Positions 14,685 through 20,000 of a stretch of DNA of 20,000 bases are shown here, one piece after another. The position numbers were made by a program, and so were the translations under genes. Positions within the stretch are counted from its first letter, which is position 1, and the number at the start of each line of letters is the position of its first letter. The notes beneath the pieces were generated by a model. That model made no database searches. It was not told the DNA's origin and saw only the letters and a program-made list of their open reading frames with translations. Source of the stretch: Xylographa opegraphella (lineage: Eukaryota); contig JALDZX010000011.1 in assembly GCA_022813865.1 (NCBI GenBank), forward strand, positions 480,474 to 500,473, read 5' to 3'.

Positions 14685-16136
14685 TCACAACTTTTTGCCC
14701 GCCCTCCCAGACGGCCTTGGTCCTACAGCCCTGCCCGTCCTTCCGGCAGTCCTGAGCTCGACCCGAACTTTCCGACCCAAGTAGCCTTCCAATACCTCCA
14801 ACATCCTTGCAGCCACCTTGGCTGGCAGACTCATCACGCTCCACGCCGTTTGCGCTGGCAGGACTACCGCTGCACAAATCCAGTCAAGGAGGATGCCTGC
14901 GGAGCCCTGCTTCTGTTGGGAAGTACTTCGCTCGGCCGCTGCGGCCAGGGTGATGGCATCCGCCATTCGAGCCTCGAGATCTTGCAGGCGTGCTTCCGTC
15001 TGCATTGTCAATATTGTGGCGCGCTTCTCATAACGTCGGACAGCTCGGTTGAGAGCGTCTAGTTCAGGCTGCAGGCTCTTCCGGACTTCGGTAGATACTT
15101 GGCCAGTGTTGGAAGCGGACGAGTGTCCGTTCGATGGAAGGGCGGCAGATGTATCGGCAATGTGGGCTTCTAATTCGTCAAGCCGTTTACCAAGATCCTG
15201 AACCTTCTCCTTGTCAATCTTCTCTTCTTCGTATGGATTGCTATTCAAAGTACGTTGCAGATGAAGGGTACGAGACTGGACCATCTTGATAAGGTGGGAC
15301 AACGGACGTAGTTCGGCACCAAGAAGAAAAATGGTCAGGTTGTAGTTTGATACGAGACCCTCGGAAGGACGAGAAAGTTGACCGCGGATGGCATGAAGAA
15401 GCCATGCTCCGATCATTGGGGAAATGAAACATGCAAAGAGTGCAGTTAGCTCATGCCAACGTAGTTCAGATTCTGCATCGTGATGAACGTCGGTCTGCCG
15501 TGACTTCGAAGCAGATGGTGGTAACTGAACAGGGTCAGATCCTTGTGCAGCCTCTTTGTTGCCCACTTCTCCCTCGCTCTCTTCCTCTATGATTGTGTCA
15601 TTGTTGCCAGGATAGAAGTCGTCTGAGGCATGAGAATCTAGTAGCCGTATCCTCTGCGCTGAACAATACCAATCCCTAATTAATTTTAGCCTATGTTCCT
15701 TGACTTCTCTCAGGAAAACTCACCATGGAATCCTAACCGACCAGTTGAGAAATACGGCTGCCAATAGTAGCAGCGTGATGTCTGTCACCACAGCACTACC
15801 ATTATTGAAGAACAGTCCACCTACGGCGGGTAACAATGCCAAAGCAAGAGGTGCAGAATGCCAATGCGAGGGTTCATGGTGAGTCTCTAGCCCGGAACTC
15901 TTTACCCTGGGCAACAGCAAGTCGTCGGTAGAAGACTTGAAGGACTGGCGAGCATCATCTACGGACTCAGTCATCGACGAACCGCGTCGGTTCCCAAGCG
16001 GAGAGCCCGGATCCGCGACAGTGGAGGCACGAGAGAGCAGCCGTTGCCGAAGAGGCGATCGACTGGCACGAGCTGAAGTCCTTGCATTGCTCACGCTGCT
16101 CCGCCGGTCCGATGGCGGGGCTTCATCCGCGGCCAT
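14685..16136 (-). CDS. Conserved fungal hypothetical membrane protein with C-terminal coiled coil, about 467 aa; complement(join(14685..15675,15724..16136)); alternative start 16208
   Basis: Two ORFs joined by intron 15676..15723 (GTGAGT...TAG), giving HWHSAPLALALLPAVGGLFF..DITLLLLAAVFLNWSVRIPW|DWY. Further hydrophobic segments ALFACFISPMIGAWLL and NLTIFLLGAELRP, and heptad-like ELDALNRAVRRYEKR..EARLQDLEARM. ATG 16136 lies in ACCATGG context. Confidence 0.85.
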
Positions 16137-16679
16137 GGTGGTTGTTGGCGTTGGCGAAGGCGAGGGGGGATCGAGCTGCAGACCAGCTGAAAGCCGTGAC
16201 TGCATCATGGACGGCTTCGTGACGGGTAGTGACGCGACAATGAGTGAATGGACGCCAACGACGACCTTGCCATCCGAAAGGGTGGATCTAGACTCTTCAT
16301 CATCGGCCGCGGTGTCGTGTGCCTGCCTCTAGTTTTCTTGGATTCCATCGATGGCTCAATCGCCGTGATTGGCGTGATTGGCCTCCGCCATCCCTTGTGC
16401 ACGAGCGTTGTGCAAGAGCCCCTCGTACAGCATGGATGCTGCATAACTTTATGTGCGCTCGCTTGGCCGCCTCCCGCTTTGGACATTCGGAAGCTCACAC
16501 ACTACTCGTCGTACAACTAAACACAATACTATCAACTCTTGCATGAGATATTCTAGGTGCGAGTCAAGGTGTCGGTTGTGCCCGTATACTGACAGCTTAT
16601 ACGCTGTCCTGGCTGCTGGGATCCCGACGACTGCACAAGGACTTCCCGGCTCTCCGCGATGGATGGACTGCTTTATCTA

Positions 16680-17058
16680 CGCTGTGGCTATTGTGTGTCC
16701 TGACATGTTGTGCACTCATGCTAGATCCTTTTCATCTACGTTGTTTCTCTAGTGTAAATCGGACTGATCTTTGTGGCGCAGAAAGACTTCATTTCGTGTC
16801 GCTTGTTGTGCTTATTGTGTAGGGCTTATTGAGCACCGAATTCGGCCTATTGATGCCACACCACCCCCGCTCGAGACATTTGACAATAGCAGGATCTCAG
16901 ATTTCTCATCTTATATCTTCGCAAGCTTTATGTTTGCGTCAATAGCCGTTCCTAGCATGGATGTCCTCCTATTGATGGCCTATTGGATGTGATGGAGCTC
17001 CCGCTGTGGCTATTGACATGTATCATCTTGCCGTCGGTCTATTGACCCGCCTGTTGAT
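16680..17058 (+). promoter_or_regulatory. Cluster of CTATTGA motifs, putative MAT1-1-1 (alpha-box) binding sites in the STE3 promoter
   Basis: Exact CTATTGA at 16847, 16969, 17010, 17039 and reversed (TCAATAG) at 16939. One-mismatch copies at 16688, 16826, 16883 (reverse), 16980 and 17051. Confidence 0.7.
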
Positions 17059-17118
17059 GATGGCTATAGAACTTCAGCACCACCTCTTCCACTACTATTT
17101 CATCGTCTTTACTTCTGA

Positions 17119-17148
17119 TCTTTCCTTCCTCCCTTCCTTCCTTCCTTC
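17119..17148 (+). promoter_or_regulatory. 30-nt pure pyrimidine (CTTC-like) tract, probable core promoter / TSS-proximal element of STE3
   Basis: TCTTTCCTTCCTCCCTTCCTTCCTTCCTTC just downstream of the motif cluster. CT-rich tracts near the TSS are common in filamentous fungi. Confidence 0.5.
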
Positions 17149-17316
17149 ATCCACTTTGCTACCATCTGTCTTGCAAGGTCTCTCACAAGTCAAAATACAT
17201 TACTTTCTTCAATAATCTTGTCTTTGACCAGCCCTTCCGTCTCATCATACTTTGTCAGACAGCACAAGTTCCGCTGTTCTTTGTCTGAGTCTTGTGGTCA
17301 TTTCAGAGTCAACCTG

Positions 17317-17540
17317 GTAAGCAGTCCCAACTGCATGTACCAATCTGCAATGTCAATTCAATGCACACTTTGTGGCTATGGAGCCAGAATCTGTCGGGCA
17401 ACCTCATTAGATTCTCGAATCTATGGCAGCACTGATGCTAGACTTCCTCGCATCCTCACATATACTTCGACCAGAAGCCCCCAACTGTTGACGCCTGCTT
17501 AATTATCACTTCGTTGTCAGGATACTCACTGCTTTCACAG
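17317..17540 (+). other. Putative 5'UTR intron of STE3 (224 nt)
   Basis: Donor CTG|GTAAGC at 17317, branch ACTCAC at 17524-17529 and acceptor TTTCACAG ending at 17540, 22 nt before the ATG. All six ATGs between 17149 and 17562 fall inside it. Confidence 0.55.
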
Positions 17541-17562
17541 TATTGAACATAAAATCATCAGC

Positions 17563-18951
17563 ATGTTATCAACCAACAGCACCGCTTCCATGGACCCATT
17601 CGTCCCAGAAATGGGCATTTCGCCAGCCGCCATCGCAGTTCCTCTCCTTTCACTCTTTACCATATTCCTCGACTTCCCCGCCTTTATCTGGCATCTGAAG
17701 CACCGCAACCTTCCCACTGGCAGCCTCATATTCTGGATCCTTGTCTCGAATCTCGTGAACCTTATCAACGCCCTCCTCTGGCCCAATGACAATATACCAA
17801 CCTGGTTCTCCGGCACCATTCTCTGCGACATCGAAGTCAAGCTCGACCTCGCTGCAACCCTCGCACTTGTCGGCTCCGTCCTCTGCATCACCAGAGCGCT
17901 TGCCCGTGCCCTTGATACCAGTAAGCCCGCCATCTCCACCACCGGACAGCAACGGTTCCGCCGTAACCTTTTCGACTGCGCTCTTTGCTTCGGCCCACCC
18001 CTCTACATCATCATAATCCACTACGTCGTTCAACCCTCGAGGTATTACCTCTTCGCTATCTCCGGATGCACCCCCTCTGTCGACAATTCCTGGCCCACCA
18101 TTGTCCTGATCTTCATCTGGGCCCCACTCCTCAGTCTTCCCTCGATCTACTACGCTCTCCTAACTATGCACCGTCTGCGCAAGTACCGCCGCGAGTTCGC
18201 CGCCATCCTCGCCTCTTCCACTTCGGGGCTCACCCGCTCGCGCTTCCTCCGCCTCTTCGCCGTTGCATTCATCGTCGTGGCCATGGTGCTGCCTGTGCAG
18301 GCATACATTCTCTACACCAATGCCTCGTTCCCGCAAATTCCCTACTCCTGGGCCGCCATCCACGACCCCGATGCCTGGGACGTCATTGTCATGGTCCCCA
18401 CCGCCGGCACCGTCACCTTCGACCGCTGGATCCGCATTGCCCTCGGCATCGTTGTCTTCGGCTGCTTCGGTACCGGCAAGGAAGCCACGCGCATGTACAA
18501 AGCCTGGCTTTGCACTCTCGGTCTCGCACACATTTTCCCCGCCCTGAACGGCACCTCGCCCCTCCCATCGCACAATCGCACGGGCCGGTCCTCCGGCCTC
18601 GACACCCTCAAGGACAAAGCCGCCTCTCTCTTCAGCAGCACCTTCTCCCGCTCTTCCCTCAGCAGCTCCACGCTCTCGCCCCACGACCCAGCCAAGTCCT
18701 TCCCCCGCTGCACCGAAGCGCAACCCGCACGCGCATATGCGCCGTCAAACATCTCGCATCCGGATCTGCAAGCCGAGAAAGCAGATTGCACAGCCGTACG
18801 ACACGGCGCTGTTGAGTCTGCACCAACGAGGGAAGATCCATGGAGCTGGTACTACAAGTTGCCGCGCGTCGGACACCCGCAGGTGCCGAGGCACGACGAG
18901 GAGCGCGCGGACGCGGCGGCGGTGGTGGTGGGCGCACGGAGATGCACCTAG
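17563..18951 (+). CDS. STE3: STE3-type (a-factor-like lipopeptide) pheromone receptor, 7-TM GPCR, 462 aa, intronless CDS
   Basis: Family motifs P.FIWHLKHRNL, NLINALLWPNDN..W.G..LCDIEVKL, HYVVQPSRYY...GC.PSVDNSW, RLRKYRREFAAIL, SRFLRLF, PYSW..IH and VFGCFGTGKEA..MY. Seven hydrophobic segments and a Ser-rich tail. Confidence 0.96.
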   Translation: MLSTNSTASMDPFVPEMGISPAAIAVPLLSLFTIFLDFPAFIWHLKHRNLPTGSLIFWILVSNLVNLINALLWPNDNIPTWFSGTILCDIEVKLDLAATLALVGSVLCITRALARALDTSKPAISTTGQQRFRRNLFDCALCFGPPLYIIIIHYVVQPSRYYLFAISGCTPSVDNSWPTIVLIFIWAPLLSLPSIYYALLTMHRLRKYRREFAAILASSTSGLTRSRFLRLFAVAFIVVAMVLPVQAYILYTNASFPQIPYSWAAIHDPDAWDVIVMVPTAGTVTFDRWIRIALGIVVFGCFGTGKEATRMYKAWLCTLGLAHIFPALNGTSPLPSHNRTGRSSGLDTLKDKAASLFSSTFSRSSLSSSTLSPHDPAKSFPRCTEAQPARAYAPSNISHPDLQAEKADCTAVRHGAVESAPTREDPWSWYYKLPRVGHPQVPRHDEERADAAAVVVGARRCT

Positions 18952-19465
18952 CCGCGCGTCGGGATCCGGGAGGGCTGGTGAAGAGAATTCGGGGGGGTTG
19001 TCATGGAGGAGTCCCTACGTCCGTAGCCGATCGGCGGGACGAGCGGTACGAGTTTTCCGTCTGAACAGCACTCTTCCACTGGCGAAAGCGGCCGGGTTCA
19101 GATGGTGCCGCTAGGGTTCTCTAGCGCAGTGGTTGCCTGGCTGGCTGGTGGGCGGATGGGGAACAGAAGCGGCTGCGTGCTTTCCCATGCTCCCCGCCCT
19201 GCTCCGTACTGTTGTTTGCCATCGTGCTATGGGCGTGCGGGCGAGGTGGTCCGTCCGTCGGTCCGGCTGTACTGTCGTGCGGTACGGTGTCGCTTTTTCT
19301 GCCTGGGTGCGTGAGTGTCTCTCTTTCCGTTCTGTTCCCGTCGGCCGGGTAGGGTGGCGTGGGAGTGGGGGAGCAGCGGGGAGTATTTCATAGCTTACCT
19401 TACGTTACGCTTAATGTTAATTGATCTGGTTCGTTTCGGGTGGGAGTCTCGTACGTTTGATACAT

Positions 19466-19530
19466 ACATACACAAACATACACAAACATACACAAACATA
19501 CACAAACATACACAAACATACACAAACATA
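19466..19530. repeat. Perfect 10-bp minisatellite (CACAAACATA)x6 with partial flanks
   Basis: Six identical units at 19471-19530, preceded by ACATA and flanked by TACA repeats. Confidence 0.97.
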
Positions 19531-19672
19531 TACATACCGCACCTGATCCATATGCTTCCACGACTGGGCGGGGTCACTCTCGTGGCTTGTGCTCTGTGCG
19601 TGCGTGCTCTGCTTGCGAGGGGAGCGCTGAAGAAAGGGCGGGTGATGAATGGATAGATTGCCTATCATACCT

Positions 19673-20000
19673 TACAGTTTCACGTCAAAAGTTTTCGCCG
19701 AAATTAACCGAGAATACGTAAAATCGCGTTCCTCGCGTAAATGACCTTTCTATTGTCTATTATTATATAATGTAAAAGCTCTATTAGGGCCTATATCTGG
19801 CAATAAGCTTTATAAAACCGAGCTTTTATTATATTAAAAAGGAATTGTAATTGATTAATCTATATTAAACGCTATATTTATTCAAATTAATAAAAATATT
19901 GGGGTCCCTCGCAGTACTATTCGCAGTATTATTTAATACTGTTAGAAATAGAGTCCCGGCCTGCCTGCAGGATAGCGAGAGCTGCTAAGCGAGAGCTCGG
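19673..20000. mobile_element. AT-rich, RIP-like transposon remnant; possible Tc1/mariner terminus at 19675 and possible LTR start at 19940
   Basis: TA followed by CAGTTTCACGTCAAAAGTTTTCGCC resembles Tc1-type TIR starts (TA|CAGT...AAAAGT). Composition turns AT-rich there, with many TpA and few CpA/TpG by eye. TGTTAG at 19940 precedes a return to GC-rich sequence. Confidence 0.5.

Follow-up and report, generated by a model that had tools for sequence, protein, structure and literature searches.

MAT1-1-1 of Aspergillus fumigatus recognises the consensus YYATTGA[GTC], which was defined by EMSA and permits G, T or C at base 8, and it binds probes from the preA promoter with a reported Kd of 1.5-1.8 uM (PMC8022922). 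This protein and its Penicillium chrysogenum counterpart bind in vitro without a co-factor (PMC8022922), and MAT1-1-1 homodimers form (PMC8022922, PMC10512297); no adjacent MADS box is described in the available parts of the two papers. The targets in these fungi are preA/pre1, ppgA/ppg1 and tomA/tom1 (PMC8022922, PMC10512297), together with kex1 and kex2 as reported for P. chrysogenum (PMC10512297). Several sites occur per promoter, with two strong matches and three bound probes for preA and five matches for tom1, and the clustering of the motif had been noticed earlier, as stated in PMC10512297. A CC-N6-GG box is missing from the tom1-2 probe (PMC10512297).

In yeasts, the pairing of alpha1 with Mcm1 is a known arrangement (PMC2253631, PMC2999568). 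Mat1-1-1 and Mcm1 of Fusarium and Sordaria interact in two-hybrid tests, and the Mcm1 consensus is quoted as CCNNNWWRGG (PMC3691137). In Podospora anserina, the alpha-box factor FMR1 activates PRE1 (STE3) and the alpha-type pheromone gene MFM, and KEX1 and KEX2 are not mating-type-specific; the study is at transcript level, with no occurrence of an ATTGA motif in the part available and with the STE13 orthologue not found there (PMC3125171). MAT sites and genes are also used outside sex in other fungi (PMC11077750, PMC13097639): both MAT proteins of V. dahliae bind ATTGA and AACAAT and lowered a pre1 reporter (PMC11077750), and loss of MAT1-1 has little effect on ste3 in F. oxysporum, where the gene is expressed in both mating types (PMC13097639).

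The site array upstream of STE3

The window, a stretch of 20,000 nucleotides from the lichen-forming Lecanoromycete Xylographa opegraphella, contains a cluster of CTATTGA motifs about halfway between two divergent genes. The gene downstream of it is STE3, as the initial annotation held (PF02076, E 1.6e-87), and its nearest named proteins are Xylographa a-factor receptors (69-83%); the array thus sits upstream of the orthologue of a proven MAT1-1-1 target. The features of the region are as follows.

14685..16208, minus strand: divergent conserved gene without assigned function, sharing the intergenic region with STE3
16680..16693, plus strand: copy 1 of an exact 14-bp repeat (copy 2 at 17002-17015), comprising a core and 8 bases upstream, perhaps a short duplication
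16688, 16812, 16883 (minus strand), 16980, 17051 and 17064 (span 16688..17070): weaker variants of doubtful function
16826..16845, plus strand: composite element of TTATTGA (16826-16832), a 3-nt spacer and a CC-N6-GG box (16836-16845), Mcm1/CArG-like
16847..16854, plus strand: candidate stand-alone MAT1-1-1-type site CTATTGAT, which fits YYATTGA[GTC] and comes immediately behind the CC-N6-GG box
16938..16945, minus strand: candidate stand-alone MAT1-1-1-type site CTATTGAC, 13.9 bits with the single-site matrix
16969..16976, plus strand: candidate stand-alone MAT1-1-1-type site CTATTGAT, exact core
17010..17017, plus strand: candidate stand-alone MAT1-1-1-type site CTATTGAC, CTATTGT in a relative's low-depth contig
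17039..17046, plus strand: candidate stand-alone MAT1-1-1-type site CTATTGAC, no listed difference in the relative's contig
17081..17160, plus strand: pyrimidine-rich tract (78-93% C+T), probably the core promoter region
17317..17441, plus strand: candidate 5'-UTR intron (GTAAGC...TAG)
17563..18951, plus strand: STE3, receptor for a-pheromone, with a 462-aa open frame whose start may be a later Met

The five exact CTATTGA copies of the initial annotation were all recovered at 16847, 16939 (reverse), 16969, 17010 and 17039, as were both copies of the 14-bp repeat, at 16680 and 17002. The chance rate it had given was also correct (recomputed for uniform composition as 0.024 per 200 bp), and the rate measured in the fungus's own genome was about 0.028 per 200 bp (28 in 199,844 nt). 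Shuffling the intergenic region 16329-17560 gave 0.18 exact copies on average, and none of 5000 shuffles attained the five observed; in 200 shuffled windows, five copies inside 200 bp were not seen for any 7-mer. The CTATTGA cluster is real and, for exact copies, far above chance. The one-mismatch copies listed beside them (16688, 16826, 16883 reverse, 16980 and 17051) were likewise at the right positions and strands, but the count of one-mismatch copies is at chance level over the whole window (62 versus 53.85 expected, with 62 reached in 23 of 200 shuffles), and 16826 is the single one of the five that matches the published consensus. Altogether, six of the 13 candidate sites of the array match YYATTGA[GTC] as derived for A. 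fumigatus, and three CTATTGT/TTATTGT variants lie inside the cluster. A test for tandem or dispersed repeats found irregular spacing, sites on both strands and just short families of two to four copies.

The contig of the relative is a single one of 286 nt at depth 2.7, which spans 16971-17261, stops short of the composite element and is too weak to count. Among the sequencing runs listed as holding the sequence, none is of RNA. The segment 17317..17441 takes in all six upstream ATGs of the stretch from 17061 to 17562, and a branch-site test found no canonical donor-branch-acceptor set in it; it is possibly a 5'-UTR intron. Within the probable 5' UTR, positions 17274-17285 read TGTTCTTTGTCT, which we take to resemble a Ste11/HMG5 box, a class of word with no clear enrichment in other STE3 promoters. 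Beyond the gene, a 10-bp unit is repeated in tandem about six times at 19462-19530, and an A+T-rich stretch follows at 19650-19950.

For comparison, the best 80 of 85 STE3 loci from a metagenome scan were reduced to 47 by collapsing near-identical ones; of these, 37 offered 1 kb or more of upstream sequence and were used, the ten shorter ones being left out; these loci are related to each other, and counts over them are not independent. The enrichment check suggested in the initial annotation, run de novo, returned TATTGA, YTATTGA and CTTATTGA as the top 6-, 7- and 8-mers, YTATTGA being the top word in the 37 loci. YTATTGA occurs upstream of these STE3 genes at 3.65 per kb, versus 0.157 in flanking control DNA (23-fold), with at least two copies in 29 of 37 promoters, at least three in 27, at least five in 11 and none in two. 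TGAAACA, the Ste12-type word, and HMG-type words were not enriched in the STE3 promoters. Among variants, enrichment was 8.5-fold for YTATTGG, 4.7 for YTATAGA, 2.4 for YTATTGT and 1.6 for YTGTTGA, against 28-fold for YTATTGA, and an A3-to-G change, as at 17051, lowered A. fumigatus EMSA binding by 50-90% (PMC8022922).

Clusters of YTATTGA upstream of STE3 are normal in filamentous ascomycetes. The array, which had been regarded as unusual, resembles those of other STE3 promoters and lies toward the upper end of their range: it has seven sites, and at least seven are present in three of the 37 others. A shift of the eighth base to C/T in this lineage had also been proposed. Over 135 sites of the other promoters, base 8 is C in 37%, G in 36%, T in 16% and A in 10%; in the window it is G in one of seven sites, which is not different (Fisher p 0.42), and the published consensus permits G, T and C anyway. 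As the other promoters share both the motif and the spread at base 8, we conclude that the array is a general feature and that the proposed shift is not real.

The divergent gene (14685-16208) is also found upstream of STE3 in 17 of the 37 other loci, across classes. It was considered as the target of the array and rejected, the clusters persisting where it is absent: the mean number of YTATTGA per locus is 4.25 in the 20 loci without the divergent gene and 2.9 in the 17 with it. Because the clusters follow STE3 and persist without the divergent neighbour, we take STE3 to be the target.

A composite element at one site

Alignment of nine promoters revealed one conserved block, longer than the motif. 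A CC-N6-GG box starts at +3 after YTATTGA in 13 of 134 sites and in 0 of 63 control sites (p no better than 0.01 when the +3 sites are compared only with these controls); it starts at +2 in five sites, which are overlapping reads of CCC...GGG, and in at most one site at each of 38 other offsets. An EM run on other fungi only, seeded with the 7-base core alone, gave TTC-YTATTGA-nAC-CCAAAWnCGG. Untrained DNA of the fungus's own genome was scanned with this composite, namely the 20 kb window, 200 kb of random DNA and 751 kb of candidate loci, which overlap. The promoter of a pheromone precursor gene (see below) ranked first (21.9), window position 16826 second (21.2 bits) and a STE13 promoter fourth (17.4), and the best random score was 10.8. 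The match ranked third, L159:274, lies inside an open frame and was taken as chance.

Position 16826 is the top place of the whole window and kept that rank in three leave-clade-out runs, with scores of 19.6-21.1. In a quick tree, the 37 loci fell into six Lecanoromycetes, 16 Dothideomycetes, four Eurotiales and 11 elsewhere. When each of the three clades was left out in turn, the held-out promoters scored above the best of 200 random tiles in 26 of 26 cases; in these runs the pheromone precursor scored 20-22 and STE13 18-20, and KEX1, KEX2 and STE2 remained below 4. In the 11 loci that belong to none of these clades, the composite is weak or missing. The array had been described as homotypic, but one of its sites, 16826, is half of a composite element, and the composite flank is found at this single site of the window. 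The STE3 and precursor promoters are alike in having a second YTATTGA within two bases after the CC-N6-GG box.

Judged from its letters, the composite is probably an Mcm1-like site paired with one alpha-box site at a fixed spacing. In its description it resembles the yeast Matalpha1-Mcm1 element, an ATTGA core beside CC-N6-GG at constrained spacing, once per promoter, present at STE3 and the alpha-pheromone gene (PMC2253631, PMC2999568). Unlike the yeast element, it is surrounded by many stand-alone sites, its core is YTATTGA, and STE13 is included. We favour, with some reserve, a MADS dimer on the CC-N6-GG box, most likely Mcm1, that works together with MAT1-1-1 in the manner of yeast alpha1 and Mcm1, because the window box agrees with the quoted Mcm1 consensus at 9 of 10 positions, the yeasts offer a precedent, and contacts are reported from Fusarium and Sordaria (PMC3691137). 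The in-vitro binding of MAT1-1-1 without a partner (PMC8022922) and the lack of such a box in the tom1 probe (PMC10512297) speak against this step.

With the cores still being MAT1-1-1 sites, the conserved flank could instead be contacted by MAT1-1-1, as a dimer or through an extended contact, or be bound by a zinc-cluster factor with a preference for CGG triplets. The window box is a perfect CCG-N4-CGG palindrome, its 3' half in general prefers CGG over RGG, and MAT1-1-1 homodimerises and binds alone (PMC8022922, PMC10512297). Against this, the base after CC in the other fungi is A in 54%, C in 24% and G in 14%, the core of the box is A/T-rich, several lichen loci with CCAAAAAGGG match the quoted Mcm1 consensus in full, and the alpha1-Mcm1 pairing is known from yeasts (PMC2253631, PMC2999568). 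We consider such a reading of the flank unlikely.

In the literature searched, which covered few subscription papers, no description was found of these sites in a lichen fungus or of the composite in Pezizomycotina. The composite for filamentous fungi may well have been published already, since an alpha-specific motif of filamentous fungi is said to have been derived by Baker in 2011. A MADS gene noticed along the way (L186) presumably belongs to the MEF2/Rlm1 type.

Other candidate targets and the mating-type locus

The initial annotation had expected the motif to lead to the rest of the regulon, and an alpha-pheromone precursor and STE13 were indeed reached. In the 1 kb upstream, YTATTGA occurs seven times at STE3, four times at the precursor and twice at STE13, and not at all at STE2, KEX1, KEX2 or MAT1-1-1. 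Of 200 random 1-kb tiles, 161 had none, 33 had one, six had two and none had more. Enrichment of clusters at mating genes, on which the earlier proposal depended, was thereby found for STE3, the precursor and STE13 against random tiles. Two of the four alpha-pathway genes examined carry the motif (the precursor and STE13; not KEX1 or KEX2), and the opposite receptor STE2 is without it. This is as in Podospora, where STE3 and the pheromone gene, not KEX1 and KEX2, are controlled (PMC3125171), and unlike P. chrysogenum, where kex1 and kex2 are targets (PMC10512297). With the P. chrysogenum and A. fumigatus clusters the locus shares the core, the consensus, the target genes and the several sites per promoter; it differs in belonging to a lichen-forming Lecanoromycete, in its seven sites, and in that STE13 has sites and KEX1/KEX2 do not. 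The two further loci are as follows.

L198:3099-3696 (G000:C198): unannotated alpha-pheromone precursor-like gene with two exons; sites at L198:2336, 2358, 2763 and 2861
L214:2229 and 2426 (G000:C1): two strong sites upstream of a STE13-type dipeptidyl peptidase gene, one with a composite-like flank

In a genome scan, same-strand motif pairs outnumbered those of the reversed control (18 versus 3, and 68 versus 12), part of them being tandem repeats. Among the matches listed, 74 stretches were taken; A+T-rich and tandem rows and 70 further rows were left out. Over 75 stretches, the cluster score of a single-site matrix trained on other fungi was highest for STE3 (53.3), followed by a 13-bp tandem repeat (48.2) and the rest at 26 or less, and the best of 20 unselected 10-kb stretches reached 17.5. 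The pheromone gene ranked only seventh of 75, behind the tandem repeat and matches in or near unrelated genes; the bare motif is therefore a noisy finder of the regulon. A search of the genome for TATTG triplets was swamped by A+T-rich repeats, and no tom1 orthologue was recognised among the candidate stretches.

The stretch L198 was chosen solely for its motif pair in the blind motif search. The protein predicted from its gene begins in the manner of a signal peptide and contains X-A/X-P dipeptides as well as four Cys-containing units that precede KR; three of these units end in FCYRIGEPC. It has no Pfam match; its 57 homologues share the repeats, and all are unnamed or hypothetical. The spacing of the units is that of the Paracoccidioides alpha-pheromone (PMC3464258). 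From this architecture we infer an alpha-pheromone precursor. Atlas matches for the pheromone were below 0.9 except for one unnamed cluster and serve as leads only. A direct peptide-pattern search gave five matches versus nine in the control, none of them the precursor, and the pheromone regular expression missed the precursor in its own stretch, where it was recognised from the listing of frames.

Several other clusters were seen. An inverted YTATTGA pair around a CC-led box, with two further sites, lies at L183:2192-2444 (G000:C46) upstream of a 232-aa frame without Pfam match, a candidate target with a composite score of only 8-10. The 13-bp unit, which holds CTATTGA, is present in six tandem copies at L166:4861-4935 (G000:C192), 3' of a Velvet-domain gene. 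Six CTATTG[A/T], four of them CTATTGT, lie upstream of an RCC1-family gene at L165:3959-4125 (G000:C220). Smaller clusters lie upstream of a coiled-coil frame (L163:4977-5159), a SWIRM gene (L164:4876-4914), an RNR-inhibitor gene (L168:4622-4696) and a PHD-finger gene (L171:4270-4479), none of which scores as composite, and an inverted CTATTGA pair lies upstream of an HMG-box gene (G000:C1:160259-160396, L254).

A single alpha-box match was found in the genome (PF04769, E 4.5e-28, contig G000:C6), flanked by APN2-like and SLA2-like frames, which we take to be APN2 and SLA2. No MAT1-2-1-like HMG box was recognised, by eye and location, among the five HMG genes or between APN2 and SLA2, and with the alpha box present this fits a MAT1-1 idiomorph. 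Frames without Pfam match lie between the APN2-like gene and MAT1-1-1 (L020:7865-8641), presumably the place of MAT1-1-7 in lichen fungi. In MAT1-1-1, the alpha box is intact, but the conserved acidic region at the C-terminus lies in a different frame (L001:1927-1978, G000:C6). Four close homologues (P0098-P0101) read straight through the 19-residue stretch concerned, of which a Met-Ala-Ser/Thr motif is present in distant homologues too. The database model of this very locus (P0097) removes the stretch as a 52-nt GT..AG segment, which, unlike intron 1 of MAT1-1-1, is without a branch-site consensus. The frame change could stem from an error in the assembly, from a recent frameshift or from a new intron. 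Conservation is 74% after it versus 73% before, so the part beyond has not decayed, and any break would be recent or an artefact.

A maintained sexual circuit had been deduced from the array. It does not follow, since such sites and genes serve outside sex elsewhere (PMC11077750, PMC13097639), and the MAT1-1-1 frame change weakens it further; for this fungus it is a plausible candidate reading.

Proposed control of STE3 by mating type

The initial annotation was borne out in calling these MAT1-1-1-type sites upstream of STE3, on the fit to the consensus, the enrichment across STE3 promoters and the alpha box in the genome. As an array, it is an unremarkable instance of a regulatory motif already known. 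We propose, with a probability of roughly 0.7, that the region is an upstream activating region tying STE3 to mating type MAT1-1. It would consist of one composite site and five to six stand-alone YTATTGA sites. MAT1-1-1 very probably binds the YTATTGA cores, and Mcm1 would occupy the CC-N6-GG box adjoining one of them. The extra sites would give higher occupancy for a weak binder with micromolar affinity, and the outcome would be STE3 transcription in MAT1-1 cells. Points against this reading are the lack of sites at KEX1 and KEX2, the observations in V. dahliae (PMC11077750) and F. oxysporum (PMC13097639), and the MAT1-1-1 frame change.

The sites could also be a general MAT/HMG-box element used by MAT1-1-1, MAT1-2-1 or another HMG factor, with a control of STE3 that is not mating-type-specific or not activating. 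Both V. dahliae MAT proteins bind ATTGA and AACAAT (PMC11077750), MAT1-2-1 binds the tom1 probe (PMC10512297), ste3 of F. oxysporum is on in both mating types (PMC13097639), and the cluster has its three CTATTGT/TTATTGT variants in a genome with five other HMG genes. The sites are nevertheless present at STE3, the precursor and STE13 and absent at STE2, which is an alpha-specific pattern, and STE3 promoters show no clear enrichment of CTTTGT (27 versus 19.9 expected) or CATTGT (12 versus 23.6), so that we regard a general element as quite improbable, more so than the alternative reading of the flank. It is very improbable that the array is a relic or a product of local duplication, now functionless in this lineage: the 14-bp repeat, the tandem repeats with the same core elsewhere (C192, C2) and the MAT1-1-1 frame change would suit it, but the sites lie on both strands with unrelated flanks, the STE3 and pheromone frames are open, and MAT1-1-1 is equally conserved beyond the frame change.

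The activating region under MAT1-1-1 is thus the reading we retain. The claim that the composite works together with Mcm1 and has so far gone undescribed in Lecanoromycetes, Dothideomycetes and Eurotiales is tentative and rather doubtful. If it is true, MAT1-1-1 in filamentous ascomycetes works with a partner at the core mating targets, and the composite, conserved in these three groups, defines a small core regulon (STE3, alpha-pheromone precursor and STE13) with enough specificity to find unannotated pheromone genes in unculturable fungi. Two proteins and a single 36-bp probe would suffice to test whether the alpha-box factor of filamentous ascomycetes requires Mcm1 on DNA, like its yeast counterpart, or acts alone, as the EMSA work in Penicillium and Aspergillus suggests. 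Should reads confirm the MAT1-1-1 frame change, this isolate would serve as a natural experiment on the need for the acidic C-terminal part. Lichen pheromone precursors are mostly unannotated, with none of the 57 homologues bearing a functional name, and the composite matrix offers a sharp handle on the mating genes of lichen fungi, which are hard to culture.
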